DNA of 64,000 bases from Armatimonadota bacterium (GCA_025998755.1 AP024674.1:876467-940466), one strand, 5' to 3'. Counted from the first letter of the stretch, positions 27,736 through 53,735 are shown. Notes: generated by a model not told the origin, from the letters alone. A program made the numbers and translations.

Positions 27736-27952
27736 ATCCTGCTATCCTATGGGTATCAGATTAAGCGCGGAGCCGGGACAGGGCCCGCTGCAAGGGACCG
27801 GACCAGGCAGTATCTTACTCGAATCTCCATCCCTTCCGCACACAGCACGGACGCACTCTGCGTGTGTTGCAGGCAGTGTCACTTGCGGGAACAATCTATC
27901 CGGTCGCCCACCAGTGCGCGCACATATTACAGAAGAAAACGAGGTGCGGAGT

Positions 27953-29719: not shown

Positions 29720-30672
29720 GAGCGATTCACGAGGAGGAACCTGTGCTGTTCACACGTCACCCCGCCAATCCTGTCCTAGGGCCTTCAGATCTCTGGTGGG
29801 AATACAGAGCCACTTTCAACTGCGCCGCAGCCGAAAAAGACGGGCGCGTCTACCTGCTATATCGCGCGATCGGCGACGATCCCCTCTCGCGCCTGGGACT
29901 GGCCGTCTCGGAAGACGGCGTGCTTTTCGAGCGATATAATCTGCCGGTTTTCGAGGGCGATCCTGACAATCCCTGGGAAAGGCTGGGAGTAGAGGACCCG
30001 CGCGCAACGTTTCTAGACGGGACTTTCTACGTCACCTACGTCGCCGCCTCGGTGTATCCCGCCGGCCATCCGCGGCCGGCATTCAGTTTCGGAGCGCCCT
30101 GGCGAACACGGGTCTGTCTGGCCGCGACGGACGATCTCCAGAACTATCGCCGCTTGGGAGTCATTCTGCCCGATTCGGACAATAAAGACGTTGTGCTATT
30201 CCCGGAGAAGATCCGCGGGCGCTACTGCCTGATGCACCGGGAATACCCGGATATGTGGGTGGCATTTTCTGAAGACCTCATTCACTGGACGGACCATCGC
30301 CGCATTCTGTCTCCCCGGCCTGGTTACTGGGACTGCAATCGCATCGGGGCCGGAGCCCCGCCATTCAAGACGGAACTGGGGTGGGTGGAGATCTACCACG
30401 GCGTCGACGACGATCGCCGGTATATGGCGGGAATCGCGCTGCTTGATCTGGAAGATCCTTCCCGTGTCATCGGGCGATCAGCGGAGCCGCTCCTTGTGCC
30501 CTCAGAATGGTATGAGTGTGAGGGGCTGGTCCCGAATGTCTGCTTCCCGAGCGGTGTAATCGAGCGGGACGGGGTATTCTATGTCTACTACGGCGCCGCT
30601 GACAGATATGTGGCGCTGGCCACCGTCTCAAGAAAGGACCTGCTGGACTACCTGGCCCGCCTGAGAGAGTAA
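29689..30672 (+). CDS. glycoside hydrolase family 130 protein (putative beta-mannoside phosphorylase)
   Basis: GH130-type motifs ([52 protein letters not shown]). Confidence 0.7.
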
Positions 30673-38308: not shown

Positions 38309-39769
38309 TCATCCGAGGAACCGTCTGCGCAGAGCAGCCTGCAAAAGAAGATCGGCGACCTTGGCAGTCTGACCGGCTTCAAGCGACTCGCAGATCCTGC
38401 GCGTCAGCAGCACGTGCTCCTCGTCGGGCTCCCATTTCAGCCCGGCGTGCACGACTGCAGCCTGCAGATCCTGCGTCAGGAACGGGCTTTCCGGATCGGT
38501 GTAACGCAGCGCATCCGTCAGCTTCGCGCGGAACGAGGGATAGACGGAATCGAGGAACTCCAGATCCCGATCGCTTAACGACTCAAGTCCGAGGAGCTCC
38601 GGAGGGCAACCCAGGGAATACAGTGCGCAGGTGAAGGAGATGGCCCGCGGCAAGCTCACTCCGTCCAGTTCCCGCGCATATCCGAACAGTCCTATGTGGA
38701 GCTTGCGTGCCCGCCGTGGCGGAACGAATCTTGCTACCGCGTTAATGGACGGAGCAAGCTGGACGACCCGGCGGCGGTAAGCGCTGCTGTACGCCTGGAT
38801 GAGTGCCTGGGCGCGTCCCGGATCCACGGGAACGGGGGCTCCAATGGTTCTGTCTTTCAGAAAGGCGCAGGCTTGGCTTACCTCGGACACAGGATAATCG
38901 AACTTGAATGCTGACTGAATGGTGAAGGTCACCACGCTGGGATACTCCGCGCTGACGCGCTCCACCGTGCGCGGGCTAAGGCCGCCCCGGAACGGCGCTG
39001 AACCCATGCCTATGATAGGGCACAGGGGAATTCCTCTCTTCTGGCCAGTTTCATACAGTTGCTGCAGGGCCACCTTGTTGGCGAGCGCTGCGGCGGCCAG
39101 ACCGTAGTTCATCGCGGTGTCGGATCGCGCAAGGAACACCCGCTGATACTCCACATCCTTCCCGTCCAGATATTCCGTCAGGATTTCGCCGGCCCTGAGC
39201 ATTGTGGGAATGTCCTCAAACAGCGGGATGACATTGATTCGCGCCGGCCCAAAGTCACCGATCCACTGCGCCACCGTGATGTCCCCTTCTCGCACCGGCC
39301 TAAGCTGCCGCGCAATGATGAAGTCTTCGTAGTATTTGAAGACTCGGTTCAGGCAGCCAGCGGAGGTGGTCATAGGGAGGATCACCTCGAAGATCGGCGG
39401 TGGGGCGTCATCCCCGTAAAAGGCCCGGGCGGCGTCGAAAGACCGCGGAATGCTTTCCAGCGTCTCCAGGAGAATCTTGGCCTCGGCGCGCTCAACGGAC
39501 GGGTTCGGCACGCGAACAGTGAGCCGTAGATCCCGCCCCAGCACGTTCTGCCGGAAGAACTCCGGATAGAACGTGAGAAGTTTTTTCACCACGTGCGGGT
39601 CAATCTCTTTTCCCTCGACGTCCCACATCTGCTCATCGCAACCCAGATGCGAGTAGCAGTAGAACGCCTCGCGGATCTCGTCTTCTCCTGCCAGGACGGG
39701 GGAGGATGCGAAGAAGGGAACAGAAGCGTTATCGGGGTGTTGCGTGCTCATGCACCGCGAAACATTCAT
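38309..39769 (-). CDS. phosphoenolpyruvate carboxylase, archaeal type (PepcA-like)
   Basis: Hallmark N-terminus MSTQHPDN; ~500 aa; ATG 39769 preceded by ggag; ORF-track start 39832 treated as extension. Confidence 0.75.
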   Translation of the reverse strand: MNVSRCMSTQHPDNASVPFFASSPVLAGEDEIREAFYCYSHLGCDEQMWDVEGKEIDPHVVKKLLTFYPEFFRQNVLGRDLRLTVRVPNPSVERAEAKILLETLESIPRSFDAARAFYGDDAPPPIFEVILPMTTSAGCLNRVFKYYEDFIIARQLRPVREGDITVAQWIGDFGPARINVIPLFEDIPTMLRAGEILTEYLDGKDVEYQRVFLARSDTAMNYGLAAAALANKVALQQLYETGQKRGIPLCPIIGMGSAPFRGGLSPRTVERVSAEYPSVVTFTIQSAFKFDYPVSEVSQACAFLKDRTIGAPVPVDPGRAQALIQAYSSAYRRRVVQLAPSINAVARFVPPRRARKLHIGLFGYARELDGVSLPRAISFTCALYSLGCPPELLGLESLSDRDLEFLDSVYPSFRAKLTDALRYTDPESPFLTQDLQAAVVHAGLKWEPDEEHVLLTRRICESLEAGQTAKVADLLLQAALRRRFLG

Positions 39770-40062
39770 CGTGAACAATCTCCAGAAGGGGCGTGCGTAT
39801 TTGTGGCACCAGCGCAGTTCAGGGACGGTCAATCACGGCAGTATACCCCGAAAGAAAGCGTCCTGGTGTCCAGCGGAGAACCTGTCACCGGCGAAGCAGT
39901 GCACACCGGGGCAGGTTGTTGCGGCGTATGACGTGATTGAAATCCGCCCTTGCGAGCAGTGGAGGAGGAAGGCGGCTGGGCAGTGGAGGGCCCAAATTTG
40001 TGCTGGGGGACGAGCGAGGTAAGCTGATAGCCAAACTTTTTGAAATCCCTACGGAAAAAGTC

Positions 40063-40091
40063 TTGCGAGGCAGCAAAAGATATGTTACTCT
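40063..40091 (+). promoter_or_regulatory. candidate sigma70-type promoter of the glycan locus
   Basis: TTGCGA (40063-40068), 17-nt spacer, TACTCT (40086-40091), directly upstream of the palindromic operator. Confidence 0.3.
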
Positions 40092-40093
40092 GA

Positions 40094-40115
40094 GGTGTGG
40101 GAGCGCTCCCACACC
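40094..40115 (+). promoter_or_regulatory. perfect 22-bp palindrome, LacI-family operator candidate
   Basis: ggtgtgggagc|gctcccacacc; core GTGGGAGCGCTCCCAC resembles the symmetric lac operator TGTGAGCGCTCACA; half-site tgtgggagc repeated at 40117-40125; 30 nt upstream of the first gene of the locus. Confidence 0.45.
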
Positions 40116-40144
40116 CTTGTGGGAGCAGAGAAGGAGAGGGCCGT

Positions 40145-42958
40145 ATGCTCCGTGCTACGGCCCCGGAAGCGATGTGGCGTATTCTGCTGGTCGCCATAGT
40201 GGCAGCAGCGCCGTGCGGACCTCTAGCCGCCGCACTGCTGGCGAATGCCGGGTTCGAGGCCGGAGACGGAGCCACGCCTCCAGATCCCCTTTACTGGACA
40301 GAGTACGGTCCGGACCTGACCGGCGAACGCTCTTCTGTCTTCAAGCGCTTGGGAGGATGGGCGGCAAAGCGTTGGACGGGCGGCGACCATCAGGAGTACG
40401 GATATTATCAGGACTTCCCGGCGATCCCGGGCAGAGAGTATCGTCTTGCCGCCTGGCTTCACAGCCCGCCCTCGGACGCGCTGTCTGGCTCCAGCTATGC
40501 GTGTCTGAAACTCGAGTTCCTGTCACCAGGCGGCGCGATGCTGCTCCAACGGGAGAGCCTCCGTCTCACCTCATCCAACGCTGGGTTCGAGGAGTATCTG
40601 GTCACAGCGGTGGCACCTCCGGGGGCCACAAAAGGTCGGGTGGTCTACGCTGTAGGCGCGGGTGCCGCACCGCACGGCGGTGCGGCCTACTGCGACGACG
40701 TCACGCTCGAAGATCTGGGACCGCTGCCCACATCCGACGACGCGTTGCTGGAAGAGCTCCAGAAAAGGGCCTTCCGTTTCTTCTGGGACGAGGCAGGGCC
40801 GCTGGGGCTCATTAAAGACCGGGCAGGCAACTTCCGGCAAGACCGATACCAGCACTCCAGCATCGCATCCGTGGGATTTGGGCTGGCGGCGATCTGCGTG
40901 GCCGAGGGGCGGGGCTGGGTGTCACGGGAGCAGGCTCGTCAGCGCATCGCGCTGACGCTGGATACCCTGGCTACGAAGGTTCCCAGGCAGCACGGATTCT
41001 TGCCCCATTTCCTGGATGCACGAACCGGGCAGCCATCCCCGGGAACGGAATACTCCGCCATTGATACGGCAATCCTGCTCTACGGAGCGCTGTTTGCCGG
41101 GTCCTGGTTCGAGGATCGATACGGAGACGCTTCCATTCGGGAGGCGGCTGAGGCTCTGTACCACGCAGTCCAATGGCCTGTTCTGCATTCGGGCAGCACC
41201 GTTTACAGCGAATACTGGATGATGGATCTGCTGGCCATCGGCTCGCCAACATATCCGCTCCCGCCCTCCGTGTGGAACGCGTTCAGCCGCAACTTCCAGG
41301 ACAATCTGGCCACGCGCCCGGCCGACCGGTCATATCCCAGGTTTTTCTACCCGGTGCTGTTTGTGCACCAGTATCCGCAGCTTTTCCTGGATATGCGGTT
41401 CCGGCGCGACGTCCATACTGTGGACTTGACCTATTTCGAGAGCACCCGGAACCACACTTTTTCGAACAGGCAGTACTGCATTGATCACTCCGTGTCCGCC
41501 GGGTTTGCGCATCCCCGCTTCCAGACCTACTCGGAGCATTGTTGGGGACTGACCGCCGGGGATGGCCCGGACGGATACCGGGACTATGGCGAGGCGCTTC
41601 CCTGGCTGCCGGAGCCGCAGAGCACCTGGCTTCTGGACGGGACCGTCCTGCCGCACGCCGCCGGTGGGTCTGTGGCCTTCGCTCCAGAGGTCTGTATCCC
41701 TGCGCTGCGCCGGATGGCGCAGACATATGGACACCGCATCTGGGGGCGTTACGGTTTTTCGGATGCCTTCAACGTGGACCGGAACTGGTGGGCGGAAGAT
41801 GTCATCGGTATAGACCTGGGCGCCATATTCCTGAGCATCGAGAACTATCGCAGTGGCGGCATCTGGCGGTGGACGATGCGAATCCCAGCCATCCGCCGCG
41901 CGCTGGCGCGGACGGGGTTCGTCGACGAGCGGCAGGCCGCGGTGGAGGATTTCGACTCCGCACCTCTTGGGGTCTGGGGATCCGGTTGCGAGAGCGATTG
42001 GGGAACGGGACACCTGTCATATGAGGAAATCGGGAGCACAGGCCAACTGCCAGGCGGCCGCGTTGCACGAATAACGGCGAGTGTGGCTGGAGGCGGAGCT
42101 GGAATCTGTCTTGGGTCGCTGGATTTGACCTACGCTGACGTCTTGAGCTTCTTCATCCGCGGGCAACGGGGTGGGGAGCGCATCACTCTGGTGCTGCGCG
42201 ATTGCGATGGACGGGAATCTGCCGTTGCGCTGACGGAGGAGCACCTATGGCAGCGCAGCATAGGCACGGACTGGCAGACTGTTTCTGTGCCGCTCAGCGC
42301 TTTCGACGGCATCCGCAGACCGTGCGCAGAGCGGCTGGCATTCCTGCTGCAGGAACCGGGGTCGGTCTGGGTTGACGGAGTGGCGTTCACCGGTGCGCAT
42401 CCAGATGCTCCGGCCGTGCCACTCCCCAGTCCCGGTTATGTGCGCAACCTTCCTCCCGGAGTATCTGTCACTCTCGAAAACCTTGTCGTAACGGACGACT
42501 TCGGAGCGTTTTTCTACGCCGCTCGGCCGGATCGCGCATCAGGAATACGCATTCAGCCGGGCGGCGGCTTCACGCCGGGGGAGCGCATTTCAGTCCGTGG
42601 AACCGTGGGGAGTGCAGATGAGGAGCCGGCGGTCTTCGCGACAGCGGTCTCCCGGCAGGGCAGGGTGTTGCCCCTTGAGCCGGTCGGGATGAAGTTGGCT
42701 GGTATAGGCAATAACCGCCCCGATCCCCTGGGACTGCGGGTTCGCTCCTGGGGTCAGGTGTCCGGTCTCGAACAGGATGGATTCCGTCTCCGGGACGGTT
42801 CCGGACGGGAGCTGGCGGTCGTCGCGCCCTCTCTTCCGAAGCCGGCTCCCGGAGCATTTGTCATTGTCACAGGTGTCGCGGGGCGCCGGGTTGCAGCGCA
42901 GGGTCCCCAACCGGTGCTGCGAATCCGGTCTCCGTGGGACATTGAGGTAGTGCAGTAG
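40145..42958 (+). CDS. secreted multi-domain glycoside hydrolase: N-terminal carbohydrate-binding module + (alpha/alpha)6 GH144/DUF3131-like catalytic domain (putative endo-beta-1,2-glucanase)
   Basis: Signal peptide (WRILLVAIVAAAPCGPLAAALLA); CBM4/9-like segment (NAGFEAGDG...YCDDVTLE); catalytic-domain motifs HGFLPHFLD and YGFSDAFNVDRNWWAEDVIGIDLGAIFLSIENYRSGG; ATG 40145 preceded by aaggagagg. Confidence 0.65.
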   Translation: MLRATAPEAMWRILLVAIVAAAPCGPLAAALLANAGFEAGDGATPPDPLYWTEYGPDLTGERSSVFKRLGGWAAKRWTGGDHQEYGYYQDFPAIPGREYRLAAWLHSPPSDALSGSSYACLKLEFLSPGGAMLLQRESLRLTSSNAGFEEYLVTAVAPPGATKGRVVYAVGAGAAPHGGAAYCDDVTLEDLGPLPTSDDALLEELQKRAFRFFWDEAGPLGLIKDRAGNFRQDRYQHSSIASVGFGLAAICVAEGRGWVSREQARQRIALTLDTLATKVPRQHGFLPHFLDARTGQPSPGTEYSAIDTAILLYGALFAGSWFEDRYGDASIREAAEALYHAVQWPVLHSGSTVYSEYWMMDLLAIGSPTYPLPPSVWNAFSRNFQDNLATRPADRSYPRFFYPVLFVHQYPQLFLDMRFRRDVHTVDLTYFESTRNHTFSNRQYCIDHSVSAGFAHPRFQTYSEHCWGLTAGDGPDGYRDYGEALPWLPEPQSTWLLDGTVLPHAAGGSVAFAPEVCIPALRRMAQTYGHRIWGRYGFSDAFNVDRNWWAEDVIGIDLGAIFLSIENYRSGGIWRWTMRIPAIRRALARTGFVDERQAAVEDFDSAPLGVWGSGCESDWGTGHLSYEEIGSTGQLPGGRVARITASVAGGGAGICLGSLDLTYADVLSFFIRGQRGGERITLVLRDCDGRESAVALTEEHLWQRSIGTDWQTVSVPLSAFDGIRRPCAERLAFLLQEPGSVWVDGVAFTGAHPDAPAVPLPSPGYVRNLPPGVSVTLENLVVTDDFGAFFYAARPDRASGIRIQPGGGFTPGERISVRGTVGSADEEPAVFATAVSRQGRVLPLEPVGMKLAGIGNNRPDPLGLRVRSWGQVSGLEQDGFRLRDGSGRELAVVAPSLPKPAPGAFVIVTGVAGRRVAAQGPQPVLRIRSPWDIEVVQ

Positions 42959-43014
42959 GCTTGGTGTGCTACGGCGCTCGTGCGTGCGCACCTTGCAGAA
43001 AGGAGAGGATGCTG

Positions 43015-44695
43015 ATGAGGAGCTGCAAAGGGCTTATCTGGATGACGCTGCTGGCGCTGGCAGTCTCCCTGCCTGCGGCGGCTGAGAATCTGTTGCTGAA
43101 CCCCAGCTTCGAAGTGGATCCGGTGGAAGACGGGCTGGCGGCCGGCTGGGCGAAGTATCGCTCTGGCGATGGCATTGATGGCTGGCTGAAGCCGTGGTCC
43201 GGCCCGGAGAACGACTGGGTGGCTGTCATTGGCCAATGGCAGCCCGGGCAGTGGGCGTTCTGGGGACAGAGTGCGCCCTGCGTTCCCGGCCGGATCGTCA
43301 CCTTCCGGGCCTGGAGCGGCGGCTTCCCCGGGTTCAACGGCTCCACGAAGGTGAAGCTGGAGTTCTACTATCCGAACCAGGAAGGGGGCACGATGGCCAT
43401 CTCCACGCCGGAGAGCTCATCCATCACGGGACCGCACGGGTGGCGTTTGCAGGAGGTGTCCGTGGTGGTCCCTCCACAGGCCATCCGGGTGCGCGCGATG
43501 CTCTGGGTGGACGGAGCTCCATCAGCACCGGCCAGCGGAAGCGCCAAGTTCGATGACGCCTGGCTGGAGACAGACGGGATCCCGCCGCGAGTGACTCCCG
43601 GCGAGGTCAACGGGCTCCCGGACAACACTCTGGTATGGCTGAAGTGGCCGGTTGTGGTGAAGGACAACGGAAGCGACGAAACCCGCACCGACTGCTACGT
43701 GACGGGATACGGCCGCGAGGGTACCTGCAGGGTGGTATCGTCGAATCCCATTCTCAGCAACGGGGGTACCGGTTGCGGTCCGACCGGGTGTTATGCTCCA
43801 CGTGCTTGGCACCGTTCAAACGGTGAACGGCGAAAAACGCGTGAACGCCATAGACATCGTTCCCACCAACTGGGACGGGCCGTGGCCCAGGCAGATCGGC
43901 ATGACATCCAAGTCCATGGCACTCCCACCGAACCCGTCCGGGCAGATTGTCCGGCTCGTCGGAAACGTCAGCAGCACGACTCCCGACAAGAGCTTTGTCT
44001 ATGTGGATGACGGGGCGAACGTGCCGGGCGAGGCTGGGTACACCGGTGTCAGGGTTCCCTATCCGGGCAGTCCAGATGACTATCCGGCCATCGGAGACAC
44101 AGTCGCAGCTACCGGTGTGCTTTGGCTGGAGCCAGGAGCTGGCGGACAGCGTTATCCCGTTCTGTATACCCGCCGCGCCACGGATTTCAGCATCATCAAC
44201 ATTGGCAGCGGGGGCATCGGGCGCAACCTCCTGCTGAATCCCGGCTTCGAAGAAGGTCCTGCGAACTGGGAGCGATCACCTCAGAGCGTGGCCCCGGAGC
44301 GCTGGGCGGCCCGTTCCGGAAGCTGGGGCATGGCGTTCTACGCGTGGGATACCTACGAGCAGGTCTTTGTCGGCCAGAGGGTGCGCAACATCGTGCCCGG
44401 AGCCTCTTACTCCTTCAGCGCCTACATCCTGAAGGAGGTCAACCACGTGGGCAACGTGGTTATGGAGGTTCACTGGTTCGATGCGGACGGTAACGAGATT
44501 CTCCCTGCGGTAGAAGTCCCTGCCGCCGCGGGCACCACTTGGCAGCAGTTCACTGTACCGGTTGTCGCCCCGGCCGGGGCCGCCGAGGGGAGTTTCGTAA
44601 TCCGGAACGTGGATCACGAACCTGCTCCGCCGCCCGGGCAGCTTCAGGCAGTGATGATTGACGACGTGGTGGTGAAGATGACCGCCACGCCCTGA
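43015..44695 (+). CDS. secreted protein with two CBM4/9-like carbohydrate-binding modules (apparent frameshift at G5 run 43762-43766)
   Basis: Signal peptide (LIWMTLLALAVSLPAAA); NLLLNPSFEVDPVEDG and NLLLNPGFEEGPANWE module starts; reading frame changes near cgggggtacc. ORF track shows 42961..44010 and 43793..44695. Confidence 0.5.
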
Positions 44696-44863
44696 TCAGT
44701 GTTGGAAAAGCTTCGGGAAGCGCGCCGTGGTCAGCTACAACGTTCGCGGCGCGCCTCCCGGGAAGATCGGCGAGTTATTCGCCGGAACAGCAGAAGCAGA
44801 CCTTCCGGAGCGTTGCAGCGCTCAGGGAGCTGCAAGTCTCAACGAGACAAGGAGGAAAGACAG

Positions 44864-45628
44864 ATGGGTAAGTGGTTCTGGCTCTGCTCGCTGGCACTGG
44901 TCCTTGGTGTCAGTTGCGCGGCGAACGCTTACGGGCCGGTCAGCTCCATTGATTCGGCCAAGGTCTATCAGTACGTGTGGCAGGACGATCCGGACTCCAC
45001 TCTGACGGTGGTGAACAACTATCCGTCCTATATCAGCTTCCGCGATGAGAACCTGGACGGCGACGGTCAGGGCGGGGAGTATGCCAACCGGCACGTCTGG
45101 AGGTTCTCCGCGGACGGTGGGTCAACTCCTTTCGAGTTCGGCAACACCACCTATTTCGAGTACTTCGTGGACGTGAAGGTGCAGGGCGACCCCACGACGG
45201 GGAAGCATCACGAAGCGGGCATCTTCTTCGACTATCGAGGCTGGGACGGCGTTCTGATGGTGAAGACCAACGGAGAGATCGCCGCCTTCGGCTATGTCCT
45301 TCCGTTTTATGCCTTCTTGGATCCGTACACCCCCGGCGACTGGATCCGTATCGGGGTGAAGTATTTCCAGGATCCCGGAGACGGCAAGAACAAGATCCGG
45401 TATTACGCGGGCTCCGCGCAGAGCCCCGCTCTGGCATTCGGAAACCTGGAGGGGGGCATCATTGACGGAACGACCATCGGGGGCTACGGACAGTTCCAGA
45501 TCGCTCCCGGGGTCCAGTCCAACTTCGGCATGGCGGAGTGGGGCAACATTCACATTGTGCCGGAACCGGCGTCGCTTCTGGTGCTGGCCGCCGGCGTGGC
45601 AGGCATGGCCCTGCGCCGCAGGCGCTAG
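44864..45628 (+). CDS. PEP-CTERM sorting domain protein (exosortase substrate)
   Basis: Signal peptide (WFWLCSLALVLGVSCAANA) and C-terminal VPEPASLLVLAAGVAGMALRRRR (PEP motif, TM helix, Arg cluster); aaggagg RBS. Confidence 0.7.
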   Translation: MGKWFWLCSLALVLGVSCAANAYGPVSSIDSAKVYQYVWQDDPDSTLTVVNNYPSYISFRDENLDGDGQGGEYANRHVWRFSADGGSTPFEFGNTTYFEYFVDVKVQGDPTTGKHHEAGIFFDYRGWDGVLMVKTNGEIAAFGYVLPFYAFLDPYTPGDWIRIGVKYFQDPGDGKNKIRYYAGSAQSPALAFGNLEGGIIDGTTIGGYGQFQIAPGVQSNFGMAEWGNIHIVPEPASLLVLAAGVAGMALRRRR

Positions 45629-45793
45629 TGCTCCGGCAGGGGGGACGGCCGGTCCCGTCCGACCGTCCCTCCTGAACGCCCGGCGCCGTTCAGGAATGCC
45701 GCCACTGCTCCACGACCGCCCCTGCGAAGCTGAGACGCCTCTGGCAACCGTCCGGGATGAGGACGGTTGCAGATCACAGGCGGAGGCTCAACA

Positions 45794-46483
45794 ATGAACC
45801 GCAAGGCATTCACGCTTATTGAACTGCTGGTGGTGATCGCCATCATCGCGATCCTGGCTGCCATCCTGTTCCCGGTTTTCACCCGGGCCCGAGAGAGCAG
45901 CAAAAGGTCGGCCTGTCTGTCCAACTGCAAGCAGCTCGCTTCTGCAATGCAGATGTACATTGATGACTGGAAAGGCCGCTTCCCGTCGTTCACGTATAGT
46001 GAGCAGTGGAAGCAGCTGGAGCCGCAGAATATCGTCTCCTACACAAAGAGCGAAGATGTCTTTCACTGCCCTGGCGCTACGGATATCAATAGCGCCCGGG
46101 TTCCGCCGCGAAACGCCAGCGAAAACTGGAAGAACTACTTCGGCCGGAATATGGGCAGCCCGGCTCAGTGGAAGTGGACGGACTACAAGATGATGGACAA
46201 CGGGTATCTGCCAGGAATGAGCGCCTCTGAAGTGCGCTCGCCCGTGTGGCTGGTGGTCTGTATTGACAACACGGACTGGTGGCCGCGGCATCCACGAGGC
46301 ACGGCTGCGAAAAATTACAACGATGGAGGGAGCAATCTGGCGTTCCTGGACGGACACGCGGCGTATTTTCCGAAGGAACGCTACAACGACGGCAACAAGC
46401 GATCCGGTCCCGATGTGGACGACGCAGGAGCCACTCCTTTCTGGAACTGGGGGCTTCCCCGGGATTACTGGATTCCGGAATGA
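45794..46483 (+). CDS. prepilin-type N-terminal cleavage/methylation domain protein (DUF1559-like)
   Basis: N-terminus [29 protein letters not shown]; C-terminal [15 protein letters not shown] (H-X9-DG-like); ggagg RBS. Confidence 0.8.
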
Positions 46484-47772
46484 TCCCTGTGCTGTTGGCA
46501 TTGATGCTCGCGGGAACCGCCGCGGCGGGAGGCGAGCTGCGAGATGACCGCAGCTACCTGATCCAGGTTGCTCGCGAGACGTGGCGCTACTTTGAAGAGT
46601 GCCGCGACCCGGTATCCGGCCTGGTCTGGGATCACTGCGGGGAGACTGGCGCTGAAGGTCGGGGAGAGTATACCAGCCCCACGAATATCGCCCTAGACCT
46701 CACCTCGACGCTTGCGGCGATGGACCTCGGCATCATCACGCGGCAGCAGGCACAGGAGCGCATCGAAACGATTGTCGGCACACTTCAAAAGCTGGATCGG
46801 TACCGGGGGTTTTTCTTCAATTTTTATGAAACTGCCACGCTGAAGCCGACAGTACGCTTCCTTTCTTTTGTGGACAACGGCTGGCTGACCCTGGCGCTTC
46901 TGGCCGTCCGGCAGGAGTTTCCGGGAGATATGGGGGAGCGGGCCACCGCCATATTGAACAGCCAGGACTATGCATTCTTTTATGACCGGAAGGCCGGTTT
47001 GATGTATCACGGGTTCCATACGGATCGCAGGGGGATCCGCTACGGCCACTATGCTATCTTTTGCTCCGAACCCCGGGCGGCATCGCTTCTGGCCATCTCT
47101 CGCGGCGATGTGCCGGTGGAGCACTGGTTCCGGATGGAGAGAGCGCGTCCGGCCGAGGGGAAGGATTACAGGAAAGGAGAGATGCGCCGTTACTGCGGCG
47201 TCGACGTCCAGGAGAGCTACTTCGTCTACCGCGGTGTGCCCGTTGTGCCCAGCTGGGGCGGAAGCATGTTCGAGTTTTTGATGCCATCCCTGTTCATTGA
47301 CGAGTCCAGGTATGCGCGCACCAGTCTGGCCGAAAACAATCGCCGCGCCGTAGATGCGCAGATTGCGTTTGCCGCGGAGAGGGGAATGCCTGCCTGGGGA
47401 CTGTCGCCGTGCGCCAATCCGGCTGGCGGATATGGAGAGTACGGCGCTGCACCCATCGGGGTACAGGGGTATGCAGAGGGCGTAGTGACCCCGCACGCCT
47501 CGTTTCTGGCACTGGAGATCCGCCCTGCAGAGTCGCTGGCCAACATCCGGAAAATGGAACAGCTGTATGCCATCCGTGGTCACTACGGGTTCCGGGACTC
47601 TGTGGACACGTCTTCCGGCCGGGTAGCCAGTGTGTATCTGGCGCTTGACCAGGGCATGATCCTCACCGCCATCGGCAACTATCTGACGGGCGGCTCGATC
47701 CGCCGGCGCGTTATGCGGGATCCATCCATGAAGAAGGCTACCAGGATTCTTGCAATGGAGCGCTTTTTCTGA
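46480..47772 (+). CDS. secreted GH144/DUF3131-like (alpha/alpha)6 glycoside hydrolase, second copy
   Basis: Signal peptide ([18 protein letters not shown]); motifs SFVDNGWL and YGFRDSVD...[21 protein letters not shown] paralogous to the 40145..42958 catalytic domain; start overlaps upstream stop (ATGA). Confidence 0.65.
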
Positions 47773-47791
47773 AGGAAATGGGGCAAGGAAA

Positions 47792-48853
47792 GTGGCTGCT
47801 TCCAGAACACCACCGAACATCTTCGACGTGGCCCGTCGGGCGGGGGTTTCCAAGTCCACGGTTTCGCGCGTTCTGAACGGGTCGGATCGCGTGAGCGAAG
47901 CCTCCCGACAGGCGGTTCTCCGGGCAATGGAAGACCTCGGCTTTCGGCCGAACAGCGCCGCCAGGCGTCTTGCAGGCTCGGCGGACCGGCGCATTGGTCT
48001 GTTGCTGCCTTTTTTCGGAAGCATGTTCTCATCCTTTTACGTGTATGAGATCATCCGTGGGGTGGGTCAGGTGGTTTCGGAACGCGATACGGAACTGCTG
48101 CTCCATTTTCAGCACGAAGACCGCAATGGACATAACCTCCGGCGGCGTTTGACAGCCAATGGTGCGCTTGGCGGATGGGTCATCGCAGATGAAATGGTGG
48201 ACGACGGGCTACTGGAAGAGGTTCGCGAGGCTGGAATCCCCTTTGTGTTGCTGAACAGAGAGTCCTCCGTTCCGTGGTCTTCCTGGGCCACAGTGGATAA
48301 CCGGGGCGCCGCAGAGGCAGTTGTGGAATATCTCGTTTCTCTCGGACACACGTTTATCGCCACGCTGACTGGTCCGCTTCACCAGCCTCCCGCCCGGGAG
48401 CGCCTGGAAGGCTTCCAAGCGGCGATGGCTGCGCGGGGTCTTGAGGTTCCGGATGGTTGGGTGGCCCGCTGCGACTTTCAGCGGCAGCTGGCAGCGGAAG
48501 AGACAGTCAGAATGCTTCGAGAACGTCCCCGTCCGACGGCTATCTTTGCGGCGTCGGACCTGATGGCCGCCGGCGCATATGAGGCTGCCTCGTCGCTTGG
48601 GTTGCGGATCCCGGAGGATCTCTCGGTGGTGGGCTTCGACGACGACTTCATTGCGGCTCAGTTGATTCCCCGCCTGACTACGGTCCGCCAGCCCCTCCAG
48701 GATGCGGCGCGGGCGGCCACATCCTGGTTGCTGGATCATCTGGAAGAAAGAAACGGACAACCGCTACGTGTGAGATTGCCGGCTTTTCTGGTGGAACGCG
48801 ACTCCTGTGCGCCGCCCTCCCGGGCGGACAACAGCAAGGGGAGCAGACCATGA
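47792..48853 (+). CDS. LacI-family transcriptional regulator
   Basis: N-terminal HTH NIFDVARRAGVSKSTVSRVLNG plus periplasmic-binding-like sugar-binding domain; GTG 47792 chosen, TTG 47750 possible. Confidence 0.8.
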   Translation: MAASRTPPNIFDVARRAGVSKSTVSRVLNGSDRVSEASRQAVLRAMEDLGFRPNSAARRLAGSADRRIGLLLPFFGSMFSSFYVYEIIRGVGQVVSERDTELLLHFQHEDRNGHNLRRRLTANGALGGWVIADEMVDDGLLEEVREAGIPFVLLNRESSVPWSSWATVDNRGAAEAVVEYLVSLGHTFIATLTGPLHQPPARERLEGFQAAMAARGLEVPDGWVARCDFQRQLAAEETVRMLRERPRPTAIFAASDLMAAGAYEAASSLGLRIPEDLSVVGFDDDFIAAQLIPRLTTVRQPLQDAARAATSWLLDHLEERNGQPLRVRLPAFLVERDSCAPPSRADNSKGSRP

Positions 48854-51243
48854 ACGCCGCGGTCGCGGGGAGGTTGAGTGCAGCCGGGCGGACCCGCTTC
48901 GGTCATTTCTCGGAAGACGGCAGGGAATTCGTCATCCGCCGGCCAGACACTCCGCGGCCCTGGGTGAACGTTCTGTGCAACGACGATCCGGGATACGGGT
49001 GCATTTGGAGCCAGGCGGGAGGTGGTTATAGCTGGCTGGTCAACGCGGAGTTGAACCGGATCACCTTCTGGCAGCAGGACCTGATCCGGGATGACCGTGG
49101 GCGTTTTATCTATCTGCAGGATGCCCGGACCGGCGAGCTCTGGTCGGCCGGGTACCAGCCTGTCCGGCGGAAGCCCGAAGCCTTCGAATGCCGCCATGGG
49201 GCGGGCTACTCCGTCCTTAGCTCCCAGAACTCGGGCGTTCTCAGCCGGTTGACGGTCTTTGTGCCGCCGGCAGCGCCGCTGGAGGTCTGGCTGCTGGAGG
49301 TTGCAAACTTCTCGGGAGCCCCGCGCGATATCCTGGTTACCAGCTATCTGGAATGGTGCCTGGGCACAGCGCACGACACTCACCGGGAGTTCCATCGCAT
49401 CTTCATAGAAACGGAGTTCATCCGAGAACGCAGCGCCATCTTGGCGCGCAAGCGTCTGTGGGCCATCCCAAACGCCCTGGGCCAGGGATGGAACCGCAAC
49501 TGGGAGGGAACGGCATTTCACGCTTGCTCCCTACCCGTCGCCGCGTTCGAGTGCGACCGGGAGGTGTTTGTCGGGAGATACGGTTCTCTGGAATCGCCTG
49601 CCGCTTTGACTAACGGGCGGATGGCGGGGACCAGCGGACGATGGGGGGATCCCATCGCATCCCTTCAGGCCCCCCTCCGCTTGGGACCGGGTGAGTCGGC
49701 GGAGTTGGTCTTCGTTCTGGGCGCAGCCAATAGCGACGCAGTTGCGTTGTCTCTGGCGGAGCAGTACTGCAACGTCAAGCGTGCGGCCGAGGCGCTCCGC
49801 GAAACTCAGCTATGGTGGAGAAACCGTCTGGATGGCTACTCGGCCGAGACCCCGGACCCGGGACTGAATGCTCTGCTTAATACTTGGCTCCGCTATCAGG
49901 CCATGGCGGGGCGCCTCTGGGGGCGCAGCGGATACTATCAACCGGGCGGGGCATACGGCTTCCGTGATCAGCTACAAGACAGCCTGGTCTTCCTGCCGAC
50001 AGAGCCGGATCGGACCCGCCGTCAGATCCTGCTGCACGCGGCACACCAGTTCTCTGCCGGGCACGTGTTCCACTGGTGGCAGCCGATCGCCGAGTCCGGC
50101 GCGCACAGCAGGTTTTCAGACGATCTCCTCTGGCTACCGTTTGCGGTGCTGGCCTATATCCGGGAGACCGGCGACACGGCCATCCTGAATTTTCAAGCGC
50201 CTTTTGTGGACGGCCCTTCGGATACCATCCGGAACCACTGCGAGCGCGCGCTCGATCTGGCCCTGTCCCGAAGGAGTCCCCGTGGCCTGCCGCTCATGGG
50301 CGAGGGGGACTGGAACGATGGCCTTTCGGCGGTCGGCTGGGAGGGTAAAGGCGAATCGGTATGGGTGGGACATTTTCTGTGCTATCTCCTTCCGCGCTGG
50401 GCGGAGCTGGCCAGGACCGTGGGTGACGGCGAGCGCGCGGCACAGTACCTGCAGGCGGCCCAAGACCTGCAGGCTGCCATCAACAGGTGGGCCTGGGACG
50501 GCCAGTGGTATTTCCGGGCGACCTGCGACGATGGGACGGTGATCGGCGGCAGTGCGTGCAATGAAGGCCAGATATTCCTGAACGCTCAAACATGGTCGAT
50601 CATCGCCGGGGTCTGCCCTCCCGAGCGCCGTAGGCAACTTATGCGGACGGTCCGGGACCGGCTCTATACGGCAGCCGGGCCGGTGCTGCTCCGTCCGGCA
50701 TACACCGTGCCGGATGAACGGATTGGATACCTCACCCGTTACGCTCCCGGGGTGCGGGAGAACGGGGGTGTGTATCTCCACGCGGCAACGTGGGCGATCT
50801 GGGCCGAGTGCCTGCTCGGCCGCGCAGAGCAAGCCTGGAGACTTGTTCAGAGCATCTCTCCTTGCATTCGTGCACTGGACGCTGAACTGTACCGCGCCGA
50901 GCCATACGTAACGCCCGGGAACATCGATGGCCCGGACTCGCCGCACTTCGGGCGCGGGGGGTGGACGTGGTACACCGGATCGGCCGCCTGGCTGTTCCGG
51001 GTGGTTGCGGAGTGGTTGCTGGGAGTCCGTCCCGCCAGGGAAGGACTGCGAGTTGCCCCCTGCATCCCTGAGGACTGGGACGGTTTTCGGGTGTACCGTC
51101 GCTTCCGTGGAGCGGGCTACCAGATCGCTGTTTCCAGAAATGGTGAGGGGGGGAAGCTTATGGTGGACGGCCGCCCTGTTGCAGGGGACATTGTGCCAGC
51201 ATTCCACGACGGGAAAGACCATCAGGTCGAACTCCTGTTGTAG
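48850..51243 (+). CDS. glycoside hydrolase family 94 phosphorylase (cellobiose/oligoglucan phosphorylase type)
   Basis: N-terminus FGHFSEDGREFVIRRPDTPRPWVNVLCND typical of GH94; 797 aa; start overlaps LacI stop. Confidence 0.8.
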   Translation: MNAAVAGRLSAAGRTRFGHFSEDGREFVIRRPDTPRPWVNVLCNDDPGYGCIWSQAGGGYSWLVNAELNRITFWQQDLIRDDRGRFIYLQDARTGELWSAGYQPVRRKPEAFECRHGAGYSVLSSQNSGVLSRLTVFVPPAAPLEVWLLEVANFSGAPRDILVTSYLEWCLGTAHDTHREFHRIFIETEFIRERSAILARKRLWAIPNALGQGWNRNWEGTAFHACSLPVAAFECDREVFVGRYGSLESPAALTNGRMAGTSGRWGDPIASLQAPLRLGPGESAELVFVLGAANSDAVALSLAEQYCNVKRAAEALRETQLWWRNRLDGYSAETPDPGLNALLNTWLRYQAMAGRLWGRSGYYQPGGAYGFRDQLQDSLVFLPTEPDRTRRQILLHAAHQFSAGHVFHWWQPIAESGAHSRFSDDLLWLPFAVLAYIRETGDTAILNFQAPFVDGPSDTIRNHCERALDLALSRRSPRGLPLMGEGDWNDGLSAVGWEGKGESVWVGHFLCYLLPRWAELARTVGDGERAAQYLQAAQDLQAAINRWAWDGQWYFRATCDDGTVIGGSACNEGQIFLNAQTWSIIAGVCPPERRRQLMRTVRDRLYTAAGPVLLRPAYTVPDERIGYLTRYAPGVRENGGVYLHAATWAIWAECLLGRAEQAWRLVQSISPCIRALDAELYRAEPYVTPGNIDGPDSPHFGRGGWTWYTGSAAWLFRVVAEWLLGVRPAREGLRVAPCIPEDWDGFRVYRRFRGAGYQIAVSRNGEGGKLMVDGRPVAGDIVPAFHDGKDHQVELLL

Positions 51244-51288
51244 CTACAGCGCGCCCCTGATGCGGAGTTGAGAAACGTGTCGGTTCTA

Positions 51289-51318
51289 TTGACGGGGCTT
51301 CCGCCTTCGCCCTATAAT
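51289..51318 (+). promoter_or_regulatory. near-consensus sigma70 promoter
   Basis: TTGACG (51289-51294), 18-nt spacer, TATAAT (51313-51318); about 55 nt upstream of the 51377 start with gggaggagaagggg RBS. Confidence 0.45.
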
Positions 51319-51376
51319 CTCGCCGCCGGCTGCGGCCCAAAGGCTGCGATTGAGACCGGGAGGAGAAGGGGCTGAA

Positions 51377-52075
51377 ATGAACCTTAAGACTGCGAAGCGC
51401 GCAGGGCTGAGCCTGGCGCTGCTCATCCTCGTATGCGAAGCTGCTGTGGCATACAGCATCGTGAACGTGCCCACTGCCAACCAGGCGGCTTTGCGGGAAG
51501 TTAACCTTGCCTACTACAGCATGTCTGTGGACAGGCTGCCGGTCACGCACAAGGACATCATCATTATCTACTCCACGGTAGCGCCGAACCTCGAGGTGGA
51601 GTACTTCCACATCAATATCAACAAGGGGGCTCCCTCGCAGAATCTGGTGAACGCCAGCTACAGGTTGGTGAGCGAAACGGCGCAGATCCCGGACGTAGTG
51701 GTGGGCGCCAAGAATATCTTCGAGGACGACCACTCGCCCAATCCCGATGAGCAGAAGCGCTCCTATTACATCGCCACCGCAAAGACCCTGAACCCGCCGA
51801 AGCCGGGAGCCGCCTGGCAGCCCGTGGTGCGTCTGCACGTGAACTACGGCACCCGGGAGCACAGGGGACTGTTCGGTGGTGTCCAGATCGCGGTCACGCC
51901 GCAGCTGGGGATCGCGGCAATGAAGTTCTCCAGCTCACCCTATGTGGACACCTTTTTCGGCAACTCGATGGAATATGCCGTCGTTTACTCGCTCGGGAAA
52001 GGGCGTCCCACGCTGAAGGCGGGCACTCTGGGCCGCCACGAATGGGTGGGACTGGATTACAGCATCTTCTTCTGA
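51377..52075 (+). CDS. hypothetical exported protein, possible outer-membrane beta-barrel
   Basis: Signal peptide (LSLALLILVCEAAVA), alternating beta-strand-like pattern, C-terminal aromatic residues (YSIFF). Confidence 0.5.
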   Translation: MNLKTAKRAGLSLALLILVCEAAVAYSIVNVPTANQAALREVNLAYYSMSVDRLPVTHKDIIIIYSTVAPNLEVEYFHININKGAPSQNLVNASYRLVSETAQIPDVVVGAKNIFEDDHSPNPDEQKRSYYIATAKTLNPPKPGAAWQPVVRLHVNYGTREHRGLFGGVQIAVTPQLGIAAMKFSSSPYVDTFFGNSMEYAVVYSLGKGRPTLKAGTLGRHEWVGLDYSIFF

Positions 52076-52172: not shown

Positions 52173-53735
52173 GTGAGTTGTCCGGACTTGCGCATTGCGG
52201 CGGCTTTGCTGATCGCCGCAGCAGTTCCCGTGGTTCTCCCGCTACCAGTGACGGCTGACGTGAGGACCGCGGCGCTGTTCTCCGACGGGGCCGTGCTTCA
52301 GAGGCAGCGGCCCGTTCCGGTGTGGGGATGGGGCGACGAGGGTGAGAATGTTACCGTCCACTTCAACGGACAGCAAAAATCAACAACCGTCCGGGGAGGC
52401 AGGTGGATGGTTCGGCTGGATCCGATGGAGGCGGGAGGTCCGTTTACCCTTACGATTCGCGGCCGCAACACCGTGGAAGTGCGGGATGTGCTGGTGGGCG
52501 AGGTCTGGGTGTGCAGCGGGCAGTCGAACATGCAGTGGCCCATGAAGCTGTCTGACATGCCGGAGCCGGATACCATCCAGAAGTCCGCAGACCCGCAAAT
52601 GCGCCTGTTTACCGTGCCTCGGCGCGCAGCGGACACGCCGCAGTCCGATGTGCAGTCGCGTTGGGAACCTTGCGATCCCTCCACGGTGCCAGATTTCTCT
52701 GCCGTTGGCTATTTCTTCGGACGAATGTTGAGAAAAGAGCTTGGTGTGCCGGTTGGCCTTATAAGTACTAACTACGGGGGCACCCCTGCCCAGGCGTGGA
52801 CAAGTTGTCCGGTGCTTCGGTTCGATCCGCTTCTCCGCAACCTGCTGGAACGCCAAGAGAAGGCTGTCGCCGAATATCCTGCCAGGCTGGCCGAGTGGCG
52901 CAGGGTGATGGATGCGCATCGGCAGGAGGTGGAGAAGGCCCGACAGGAGGGCCGCGAGCCCCCGCGTCCGCCCGCTCAGCCGCAGAATCCGGCAGAGTCT
53001 CCGCAGAGGCCCTGTGGTCTTTACAACGCGATGATCGCACCCCTCATCCCCTATGCCATCCGGGGCGTCATTTGGTATCAGGGCGAATCCAACGCGGGAG
53101 AAGCGTGGCTGTACCGCAGGCTGTTTCCGGCGATGATCCGCAACTGGCGCGCCAACTGGGGACAGGGAGACTTTCCGTTCCTGTTCGTGCAACTTGCTCC
53201 CTATACCAAGATCAAGCCGGAGCCCGGCGACAGTAAATGGGCGGAGCTCCGGGAGGCCCAGCTTCTGACCGCTCTAAACGTGCCGAACACGGCGATGGCG
53301 GTCATCACGGATCTTGGTGACGAGGACGATATTCATCCTAAGCGCAAGGCGCCCGTCGGAGAGCGACTGGCCCTCGCCGCGCTTGCGAAGGCTTACGGGC
53401 GGAACGTGGAGTATTCCGGGCCCGTATACCGGACAATGCAGACCGAAGGAAGCCGCGTGCGGCTAAGTTTCGACCACGCGGAGGGGGGCCTAGTGGTCCA
53501 CGGTGACCGCCTGACCGGGTTTACCATCGCCGGAGCGGACGGTCGCTTTGTGAATGCGCAAGCGCGTGTGGAAGGCAACCAGGTCATCGTGTGGAGCCCA
53601 CAGGTCCCCAGACCGGCCGCCGTGCGCTTCGGGTGGGCGGATTATCCTGTTGTGAATCTCTACAACAGGGCCGGTCTTCCCGCCTCACCGTTCCGGACGG
53701 ATGACTTCTTGATGGTGACTGGGCCGCGCAGCTAG
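52173..53735 (+). CDS. sialate O-acetylesterase-like carbohydrate esterase (SASA domain)
   Basis: Signal peptide; motifs LFSDGAVLQRQRPVPVWGWG, WVCSGQSNMQWPM, VIWYQGESNAGEAW. Confidence 0.75.
   Translation: MSCPDLRIAAALLIAAAVPVVLPLPVTADVRTAALFSDGAVLQRQRPVPVWGWGDEGENVTVHFNGQQKSTTVRGGRWMVRLDPMEAGGPFTLTIRGRNTVEVRDVLVGEVWVCSGQSNMQWPMKLSDMPEPDTIQKSADPQMRLFTVPRRAADTPQSDVQSRWEPCDPSTVPDFSAVGYFFGRMLRKELGVPVGLISTNYGGTPAQAWTSCPVLRFDPLLRNLLERQEKAVAEYPARLAEWRRVMDAHRQEVEKARQEGREPPRPPAQPQNPAESPQRPCGLYNAMIAPLIPYAIRGVIWYQGESNAGEAWLYRRLFPAMIRNWRANWGQGDFPFLFVQLAPYTKIKPEPGDSKWAELREAQLLTALNVPNTAMAVITDLGDEDDIHPKRKAPVGERLALAALAKAYGRNVEYSGPVYRTMQTEGSRVRLSFDHAEGGLVVHGDRLTGFTIAGADGRFVNAQARVEGNQVIVWSPQVPRPAAVRFGWADYPVVNLYNRAGLPASPFRTDDFLMVTGPRS

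Follow-up and report, generated by a model that had tools for sequence, protein, structure and literature searches.

A putative β-1,2-glucan utilization operon combining GH144, GH193 and GH94 enzymes in an uncultured Armatimonadota bacterium

Background

β-1,2-Glucans are rare polymers that act in bacteria as factors of symbiosis, virulence and osmoprotection and, to our knowledge, the enzymes that break them down have been found only since 2014. Here we consider a block of seven co-directional genes (positions 40145-51243, + strand) from an uncultured Armatimonadota bacterium, which lies within a 64,000-nucleotide stretch of metagenome-derived DNA (GCA_025998755.1, AP024674.1:876467-940466) that is called the window below. 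The closest named relatives of the window's proteins come from metagenome-assembled genomes (MAGs) of the Armatimonadota, and we know of no earlier description of β-1,2-glucan metabolism in this phylum. We propose that the block is an inducible catabolic operon for β-1,2-glucan, i.e. for the linear or cyclic sophoro-glucans of other bacteria, a reading to which we assign a probability of about 0.75.

The closest described systems are the endo-β-1,2-glucanase (SGL) gene clusters of Ignavibacterium album (IALB_1177-1187), Chitinophaga pinensis and Bacteroides thetaiotaomicron (Abe 2017; Kobayashi 2022, PMC8861115). The Armatimonadota locus resembles them in joining secreted glucanase of glycoside hydrolase (GH) family 144 to an intracellular enzyme that would finish the sophoro-oligosaccharides. 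With the I. album cluster it also shares a stand-alone GH94 protein, described there as homologous to cyclic glucan synthase in its C-terminal domain (PMC8861115); in an I. album MAG (locus L013 of our comparison set, whose members are numbered in this way) such a protein is present at 45% identity to that of the Armatimonadota locus. However, the locus described here contains no TonB-dependent or ATP-binding cassette (ABC) transporter, no GH3/GH1 β-glucosidase and no GH35 transferase. Instead, it pairs GH144 with GH193, a β-1,2-glucanase family established in 2025 (PMC12102758), it adds three proteins (carbohydrate-binding module (CBM)-like, PEP-CTERM ConA-like and pseudopilin-like), and it belongs to another host phylum, the Armatimonadota. 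Relative to the clusters known for SGL and sophoro-oligosaccharide phosphorylase (SOGP), what is new is thus the GH144/GH193 pairing, the stand-alone GH94 of synthase type, LacI control with a defined candidate operator, and three conserved, predicted surface proteins in the place of the usual transporter and glucosidase genes. The core logic, a secreted glucanase and a cytoplasmic phosphorylase under LacI, is ordinary, and the enzymology is predictable.

Gene content and limits of the operon

The genes of the operon, and two ribosome-binding sites (RBSs), are as follows.

Gene 1, 40145-42958, + strand: predicted secreted GH144 endo-β-1,2-glucanase, 937 amino acids (Pfam PF10091, GH144 references, catalytic residues)
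Gene 2, 43015-44695, + strand: predicted secreted, non-catalytic protein, about 559 amino acids when intact (intact orthologues, model fold)
Gene 3, 44864-45628, + strand: predicted PEP-CTERM-anchored protein with a ConA-like β-jelly-roll domain, 254 amino acids
Gene 4, 45794-46483, + strand: prepilin-type (pseudopilin-like) protein related to short DUF1559 proteins, 229 amino acids (N_methyl, TIGR02532)
Gene 5, 46480-47772, + strand: GH193 β-1,2-glucanase with a predicted signal peptide, 430 amino acids (GH193 profile, identity to SkSGL)
Gene 6, 47792-48853, + strand: LacI-family repressor, 353 amino acids (Pfam helix-turn-helix and Peripla_BP_3/1)
Gene 7, 48850-51243, + strand: predicted cytoplasmic, stand-alone GH94 phosphorylase of the cyclic-glucan-synthase type, 797 amino acids (Pfam, PDB)
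RBS of gene 1, 40131-40139, + strand: AAGGAGAGG
RBS of gene 2, 43000-43008, + strand: AAGGAGAGG

An earlier annotation made from the DNA alone (the sequence-only reading) had proposed at this position a locus of eight co-directional genes for the use of β-1,2-glucan or a related β-glucan, with a secreted glucanase and an intracellular phosphorylase. That logic stands, and β-1,2-glucan is now much better supported as the substrate than a related β-glucan, through the families GH144 and GH193 and their catalytic residues. The genes are indeed co-directional but number seven, since two of the open reading frames (ORFs) are parts of one split gene. The stop/start overlaps that it reported are present as two ATGA pairs, one between the pilin-like and GH193 genes (46480-46483) and one between LacI and GH94 (48850-48853). 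It was also correct that genes 1 and 2 have the same RBS and that the second copy lies at 43000-43008, but the first copy had been placed at 40128-40136 and is really at 40131-40139. The sequence AAGGAGAGG occurs 4 times in the window (0.79 expected), and two of these copies sit 5-6 nt 5' of the starts of genes 1 and 2.

The limits 40145-51243 that had been given for the locus are sound, because housekeeping genes on the opposite strand, for phosphoenolpyruvate carboxylase and isocitrate dehydrogenase, lie upstream, and a near-consensus σ70 promoter follows the GH94 stop. This promoter (51289-51318; TTGACG, 18 nt, TATAAT; 11/12 matches) precedes a gene for a 241-amino acid protein with no family match (51350-52075) and one for a 520-amino acid SASA-type carbohydrate esterase (52173-53735). 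These two genes were considered as members of the locus and rejected, given their own near-consensus promoter and their absence from the related loci at 62-64% identity.

The order GH144, 559-amino acid protein, PEP-CTERM protein, pilin-like protein, GH193, LacI, GH94 is retained in related loci whose GH94 proteins are 92%, 81% and 62% identical to gene 7, and the flanks of these clusters differ; the loci at 62%, which are from Armatimonadota MAGs, have another upstream neighbour. A further locus (L008; 64% GH94 identity) has the same order with the PEP-CTERM gene missing. Because the order persists to 62% identity despite different flanks, the cluster can be considered a unit that includes its non-enzymatic genes. 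The PEP-CTERM and pilin-like genes, which had been singled out as unusual for such a locus, are unusual, but they are conserved parts of the cluster and not chance neighbours.

The two predicted β-1,2-glucanases

Proteins of the SGL clan were typed with BLASTP, using the reference sequences that Nakajima et al. 2025 provide (PMC12102758, Data S4), and with family hidden Markov models (HMMs) built from these sequences. Two proteins of the locus match Pfam PF10091: gene 1 at 9e-57 and gene 5, which also has a DUF3131 match, at 2.9e-23. The product of gene 1 begins with a predicted signal peptide, followed by an N-terminal CBM-like module (about residues 30-190) that resembles the N-terminal module of gene 2, the catalytic domain (about residues 196-594) and a C-terminal β-rich region. 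The catalytic domain matches GH144 references at 35% identity (5e-80) and at 4e-44, the next family scoring 8e-15; it is 32% identical to the characterized XcSGL (3.5e-58), and the GH144 HMM gives 307 bits. Relatives in the PDB are GH144 proteins (4gl3; XcSGL, 8xul; CpSGL, 5gzh). In a clan-wide alignment, D307, E356, F406, Y481 and D557 align with catalytic and clan residues: E356 occupies the position of the acid catalyst (CpSGL E211, XcSGL E239), D307 is the candidate base (CpSGL E142), and F406 and Y481 are the clan-defining Phe (XcSGL F286) and Tyr (XcSGL Y367). Thus, gene 1 is a GH144 member, as its first description as a CBM-bearing GH144/DUF3131-like enzyme had it, and by its similarity to characterized members it most likely hydrolyses β-1,2-glucan.

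The second enzyme had also been described as GH144-like. It does belong to the β-1,2-glucanase clan, but its family is GH193. Gene 5 matches the GH193 references (Group 2 of PMC12102758) at 39% identity (3e-88) and the characterized SkSGL at 35% identity over its full length (4e-75), compared with 3e-33 for GH189, 5e-24 for GH192 and 1e-21 for GH144; GH193 is also the best family by HMM (435 bits). The conserved residues are D132, E197, F264, Y321 and D390, of which E197 and D132 align with the SkSGL acid E246 and candidate base D160, and F264 and Y321 are the clan-defining Phe and Tyr. The top PDB match is the GH189 cyclization domain of cyclic glucan synthase (8wy1). However, gene 5 has Pro310 at the position of the GH189 nucleophile (E1442) and Leu389/Asp390 at the GH189 His pair (H1536/H1537), and about 170 residues of 8wy1 (138-315), the GH189 helical insertion between α4 and α5, have no counterpart in it. 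A Pro in place of the nucleophile, no His pair and no insertion form the pattern that separates GH193 from GH189 (PMC12102758). Assignments of gene 5 to GH144 or to GH189 were therefore rejected, and the family scores, the Pro and Leu-Asp substitutions and the absent insertion together place it in GH193.

With SkSGL of Sanguibacter keddieii (PMC12102758), gene 5 shares the acid (E246/E197), the base (D160/D132) and the Pro at the GH189 nucleophile position. Unlike SkSGL, it is a bare catalytic domain of 430 residues without the Ig-like C-terminal domain, and it is translationally coupled to a pilin-like gene. The family has been described as mainly Gram-positive (PMC12102758). The (α/α)6 domains of genes 1 and 5 both fall within the β-1,2-glucanase clan, with catalytic residues kept, and not in an unrelated family.

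The putative GH94 phosphorylase and its clade

Gene 7 encodes a 797-residue protein without a signal peptide that contains both GH94 domains (PF06165, 2e-77; PF17167, 3.2e-114), in agreement with the earlier GH94 call. In the PDB, gene 7 best matches the GH94 domain of cyclic glucan synthase (Cgs), at 539 bits. The solved cellobiose phosphorylases score 395-475 bits, chitobiose phosphorylase 375-379, cellobionic acid phosphorylase 295 and LpSOGP (5h3z) 35. Placement relative to the cellobiose, chitobiose and cellobionic acid enzymes uses these PDB bit scores and one aligned region. Arranged by tiers, the stand-alone relatives score 682-972 bits, the domains embedded in synthases 527-585, cellobiose phosphorylase 475 and LpSOGP 35.

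Database searches find a large clade of stand-alone GH94 proteins of about 800 residues in many phyla at 50-55% identity to gene 7. Many members are named "cellobiose phosphorylase" by JGI and "glycosyl transferase family 36" by NCBI. A genome scan for GH94 found at least 80 loci, which were annotated with our SGL-clan HMMs. Among the matches listed, those at 43-49% identity are stand-alone GH94 proteins, and those at 36-41% identity with enough sequence are all full-length cyclic glucan synthases, with GH189 and GH94 in one ORF. In a neighbour-joining tree the stand-alone sequences and those of the operon itself form a single group. Among the same matches, GH144 or GH193 lies within the available flank in 8 of 16 independent stand-alone GH94 loci, and in 4 of the 5 that have at least 9 kb on both sides; in the fifth, a GH35 gene adjoins the GH94 gene. 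In six other loci a LacI gene lies directly upstream of the stand-alone GH94, and the order in Anoxybacter is LacI, GH94, GH144, sugar-binding protein.

The active-site residues agree with this placement. D490 of gene 7 aligns with D2528, the catalytic Asp of the cyclic glucan synthase RrCGS (PMC11842490). R372, D373, W488, E637, Y642 and H644 do not vary within the clade and match the -1 subsite and phosphate residues of GH94, and the conserved residues are spaced as R630, D631, W758, D760, E917, Y922 and H924 of LpSOGP (PMC5309861). In an ungapped alignment with the cellobiose phosphorylases of C. uda and C. gilvus, residues E649, F664, N667 and N668 of the latter correspond to Y627, Y642, A645 and A646 of gene 7. 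We take E649 and N667 of cellobiose phosphorylase to be residues of the acceptor (+1) site. All 91 sampled stand-alone and synthase GH94 sequences have Tyr at both 627 and 642; Ala, Gly or Ser is found at 645 in 91/91 and at 646 in all but one, which has Val.

Two known activities were considered for gene 7 and rejected. It is closer to the Cgs domains than to cellobiose phosphorylase, with Y627 and A645 in place of E649 and N667. It is also not a SOGP of the Lin1839/LpSOGP type, to which it is related at 35 bits and whose homologues carry an N-terminal extension of about 250 residues (PMC5309861) that gene 7 lacks. What gene 7 shares with these SOGPs is the inverting GH94 phosphorylase chemistry expected of the family, the catalytic Asp, the -1 subsite residues and, presumably, sophoro-oligosaccharides as the class of substrate; the similarity is very distant, and gene 7 belongs to another clade. 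The Cgs GH94 domain is the closest solved relative, with the D2528/D490 pair and the Tyr, Tyr, Ala, Ala set common to both. Yet gene 7 encodes what appears to be a free cytoplasmic protein, predicted to be under LacI control and 36-41% identical to the corresponding domain of an approximately 2800-residue membrane synthase. Thus, by sequence, gene 7 is a stand-alone GH94 of the cyclic-glucan-synthase type, like IALB_1177, and most likely a β-1,2-specific phosphorylase. The same role has been predicted for the Ignavibacterium homologue IALB_1177 (PMC8861115). For gene 7 the label "cellobiose phosphorylase" is probably wrong, and genomic context and active-site residues suggest that it is systematically wrong for the stand-alone clade.

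Other arrangements of GH94 were seen among the loci compared. In an Elusimicrobia MAG (L010, 7492-12445), a stand-alone GH94 directly follows a gene for an 821-residue GH35 protein, and within 10 kb there is no gene of the SGL clan; the Ignavibacterium β-1,2-glucosyltransferase IaSGT is also a GH35 enzyme. In an Acidobacteriota MAG (L024, 8939-13730) and an Alphaproteobacteria MAG (L029, 8456-13764), the GH94 ORF has an N-terminal extension of 350-500 residues and no GH189; these proteins score 569-579 bits, like the synthase domains, a GH144 gene lies directly 3', and they could represent remnants or else a third architecture. In L050 (3274-12394), L066 and L070, the GH189 and GH94 portions of a synthase lie in separate, overlapping ORFs, which could be either frameshifts of MAG assembly or truly split synthases; in L050 a GH144 gene is divergently upstream.

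Regulation

Gene 6 has the LacI helix-turn-helix and Peripla_BP_3/1 domains in Pfam, which agrees with its first description as a LacI regulator. The more likely start is the GTG at 47792, giving 353 amino acids. Three features upstream of gene 1 bear on its regulation.

Promoter-like site, 40063-40091, + strand: -35 element TTGCGA (40063-40068), 17-nt spacer, TGn and -10 element TACTCT (together 40083-40091, the -10 element at 40086-40091), read from the sequence
Candidate LacI operator, 40095-40114: perfect 20-bp palindrome GTGTGGGAGCGCTCCCACAC, starting 4 nt after the -10 element
Extra (third) operator half-site, 40118-40126, + strand: TGTGGGAGC, present in L002 and degenerate in L005

The palindrome GTGTGGGAGCGCTCCCACAC is unique in the window even when 3 mismatches are allowed, and none was found in 100 shuffles. 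All five related loci (L002, L005, L006/L007, where there are two copies, and L008) have its 14-bp core, TGGGAGCGCTCCCA, 5' of the GH144 gene, whereas the core is absent from the 85 other loci compared. The promoter call rests on a comparison of orthologous upstream regions, in which the layout TTGCnn, 17 nt, TGnTAnnCT is kept in L002 and L005. The position of the palindrome is classical for an operator of the LacI type, and from its sequence and distribution it is likely the operator for the operon's own LacI repressor.

The three predicted surface proteins

The annotation of gene 2 required that its frame be restored. Where related contigs have one intact gene of 550-559 amino acids, the window has two ORFs, 43015-44010 and 43793-44695, that overlap but are read in different frames, and an intact orthologue aligns with the first ORF at its residues 1-242 and with the second at 236-550. 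An alignment of the DNA reveals one extra G in the window, within the run 43761-43765. The reads of the same sequencing run (DRR290133) have also been assembled independently, with ATG 43015 called as the start of gene 2, and there the contig ends inside this G-run. Because the extra G sits at an assembly junction, the break is most likely an assembly artefact. A programmed or biological frameshift was considered and rejected, since the orthologues are all intact and the independent contig ends in the same G-run. Full-length homologues of gene 2 form only 6 clusters among 5.8 billion sequences, one of them labelled Armatimonadota. An AlphaFold (AF2) model, with a pLDDT of 73, is all-β, with two β-sandwiches flanking two small β-barrels; for one domain of this model, Foldseek finds CBM16 as the best match (target-normalized TM-score 0.82, 20% identity), with CBM61 and CBM22 next. 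Matches to CBMs by sequence are at E about 0.3, and there is no Pfam match. On the strength of the model, gene 2 looks like a secreted glucan-binding protein. The "CBM-only" protein of the sequence-only reading is thus CBM-like at the level of the predicted fold, but the ORF on which it was based is one part of the split 559-residue gene.

The product of gene 3 ends in VPEPASLLVLAAGVAGMALRRRR, which comprises a PEP motif, a hydrophobic helix and a basic tail. This canonical end scores 26.5 bits with the Pfam PEP-CTERM profile (cut-off 20.7) and 22.1 with TIGR02595 (cut-off 16), in keeping with its initial identification. The family to which the protein belongs has only 54 clusters, all "hypothetical", and PDB sequence searches found nothing for it. 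D41, N75 and E117 are invariant in the family, and R76, H77, E138 and E196 nearly so. Five contexts of family members outside this operon and its relatives were compared, and in four of them GH144 or GH94 is a neighbour: a Phycisphaerae MAG has a stand-alone GH94, a Verrucomicrobia MAG and a metagenome contig have GH144, and another contig has a LacI-GH144 pair, the fifth having nothing relevant. As far as we have found, this recurrent link is new. In two unrelated contigs (L091, 10001-17323; L092, 10001-15366), a ConA-like member lies near a GH144 gene of about 607 codons that is followed by a gene for a protein of about 850-900 residues without a family match; in L091 a gene for 488 residues separates the ConA-like member from GH144. 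This arrangement may be another conserved β-1,2-glucan module. No exosortase was found among the window ORFs scanned against Pfam, a scan that covered all but a few short ORFs.

Gene 4 was first described as a prepilin-type DUF1559 protein. Its N-terminus does have a prepilin cleavage/methylation motif and hydrophobic helix (N_methyl, 34.1 bits, cut-off 21.2; TIGR02532, 31.5 bits, cut-off 16.3), but DUF1559 (PF07596) falls just below its cut-off (22.4 bits vs 23.3) and is matched at profile positions 2-39 only. Of the 10 nearest relatives scanned, 4 pass that cut-off. The protein resembles GspG/PilA at the N-terminus only, and its significant PDB matches do not extend beyond the N-terminal helix of the pilins. 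For the globular part there are 2338 distant relatives, and those checked are short proteins with N_methyl and DUF1559. A literature search for DUF1559 proteins in polysaccharide use found nothing useful. The stop of gene 4 overlaps the start of the GH193 gene, and both the gene and the overlap are retained in L002, L005, L006 and L008. Because the overlap is kept in every related locus, it suggests that the two proteins are co-produced, and they are possibly physical partners.

A model for the operon and its alternatives

Under the proposed reading, the LacI repressor encoded by gene 6 would bind the 20-bp palindrome 4 nt after the -10 element, and a sophoro-oligosaccharide would release it. 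Five proteins (GH144, the CBM-like, ConA-like and pseudopilin-like proteins, and GH193) would then be exported. The ConA-like protein would presumably be fixed at the cell surface by an exosortase through its PEP-CTERM signal, and the pseudopilin-like protein would be processed by prepilin peptidase. The activities of CpSGL, XcSGL and SkSGL predict that GH144 and GH193 cut the polymer endolytically to sophoro-oligosaccharides, while the surface proteins may hold polymer or enzymes at the cell. The oligosaccharides would enter through a transporter encoded outside the operon. In the cytoplasm, GH94 would phosphorolyse them from the non-reducing end to yield α-glucose 1-phosphate.

Several points weigh against this model. 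The pathway as read is incomplete: a scan of the window ORFs finds no transporter and no β-glucosidase in the locus or elsewhere in the window. The sole transporter candidate found there is a ribose-type ABC system 30 kb away; because the window has no candidate oligosaccharide transporter, uptake must be encoded elsewhere. The activities of the operon's enzymes are extrapolated from characterized family members, and the roles given to the three surface proteins are guesses. GH144 also includes the exo-sophorohydrolase BDI_3064 (PDB 5z06), and thus the endo mode of gene 1 is not certain. The signal peptides were judged by eye, the products of genes 1 and 5 having signal-peptide-like starts. 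A generic σ70 scan called no promoter upstream of gene 1. Finally, a literature search found no biochemical characterization of any stand-alone GH94 from this clade, and the genome scan, with its at least 80 sampled loci, may have been biased by its DNA patterns against cellobiose phosphorylases.

The lack of an uptake transporter would also fit an operon that does not forage but serves to remodel or recycle β-1,2-glucan of the cell itself, at the surface or in the periplasm and whether matrix or osmoregulated. In that case one would expect the PEP-CTERM and pilin-like proteins to belong to the matrix and GH94 to act in recycling or priming oligosaccharides. PEP-CTERM/exosortase systems are typically linked to exopolysaccharide and floc formation, and the nearest relatives of gene 7 act within a biosynthetic enzyme. 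However, the window contains no glucan synthase (GT84/GT2 with GH189) and no match to the GH189 HMM, a LacI regulator with a cytoplasmic phosphorylase is how catabolic loci are usually laid out, ABC binding proteins occur in distant relatives of the module, and the long, CBM-bearing GH144 resembles a foraging enzyme. We consider action on the cell's own glucan to be less likely than uptake encoded elsewhere, and on the whole improbable. The chance is smaller again that this is a cellodextrin or cellobiose locus, in which GH94 would be a cellobiose phosphorylase and the (α/α)6 enzymes would act on β-1,4- or mixed-linkage glucans. The JGI name carried by many members of the GH94 clade would favour this, as would the 475 bits of the solved cellobiose phosphorylases at about equal length and the CBM16-like fold of gene 2, known examples of which include modules for binding cello- and manno-oligosaccharides. 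Yet both hydrolases belong to families with β-1,2-glucan as the only known substrate and keep the substrate-site residues, gene 7 is nearer to the Cgs domains and lacks the equivalents of E649 and N667, and no cellulase family is represented in the locus.

The foraging model also treats the three non-enzymatic genes as parts of the system. That the CBM-like, PEP-CTERM and pilin-like genes are instead unrelated passengers in a simple glucanase-regulator-phosphorylase operon seems the least probable of the alternatives. The PEP-CTERM gene is missing from the locus at 64% identity, one member of its family has no glucan gene nearby, and a paralogous family as large as that of the pilin-like DUF1559 proteins, with its 2338 representatives, could land anywhere. 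Against this, order and spacing, including the pilin-like/GH193 ATGA overlap, are kept to 62% identity despite other flanks, gene 2 and the GH144 enzyme have modules in common, and the PEP-CTERM family adjoins GH144 or GH94 in 4 of 5 unrelated contexts.

A more far-reaching version of the inducible catabolic operon can be put forward only tentatively, and we hold it to be doubtful. In it, the accessory set would be a surface apparatus, displayed by exosortase and prepilin peptidase, that captures and processes β-1,2-glucan; the ConA-like family would be a new β-1,2-glucan-specific binding module or enzyme family; and the stand-alone GH94 clade would be a second, unrecognized type of sophoro-oligosaccharide phosphorylase, widely mislabelled. 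By analogy, the locus may resemble the Sus-like loci of the Bacteroidota, where surface glycan-binding proteins and surface or periplasmic glycanases stand under one substrate-responsive regulator. Unlike those loci, it has no SusC/SusD pair (by Pfam, the locus contains neither a TonB-dependent receptor nor a SusD domain), and any attachment would be via PEP-CTERM/exosortase and the prepilin-type anchor.

Other features of the locus and its surroundings

The long intergenic gaps at 44696-44840 and 45626-45770 contain GC-rich hairpins. The hairpin in the first of these folds better than shuffled sequences (z = -3.3; 1/200 shuffles as good). Each orthologue has a gap hairpin of differing sequence, with no T-run and no Rfam match, and these may be intercistronic stabilizer or attenuator structures. 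An Rfam search of 39800-51500 found no RNA family at E <= 0.1, and NCBIfam gives no family call for GH144, GH193 or GH94.

The phosphoenolpyruvate carboxylase gene adjoining the locus (38309-39832, - strand) is of the archaeal type (PF14010, 1.9e-180), and L002 and L005 have the same gene beside the operon. The closest relatives are L002 and L003, and in these an extra gene for about 690 residues without a family match lies between GH94 and the 241-residue/SASA genes. About 10 kb upstream of the locus there is a gene of the GH130 phosphorylase family (29689-30672, + strand; PF04041, 7e-56), preceded by genes for an aldo/keto reductase (27647-28867) and for a 275-residue protein without a Pfam match (28892-29719). 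This neighbourhood may represent a second, separate phosphorolytic sugar pathway.

Significance

The operon would bring GH144 and the newly founded GH193 together under one regulator, and would do so in the Armatimonadota. Sequence and context tie a large stand-alone GH94 clade to β-1,2-glucan, and its members could be useful for the enzymatic synthesis of sophoro-oligosaccharides. The unannotated ConA-like family is a candidate for a new β-1,2-glucan-associated module, either binding or catalytic, and the pilin-like protein offers an operon-embedded case for a role of the hugely expanded DUF1559 proteins in polysaccharide use. If the tentative view of the accessory proteins is true, they would form a surface apparatus functionally akin to the surface glycan-binding proteins of the Bacteroidota.

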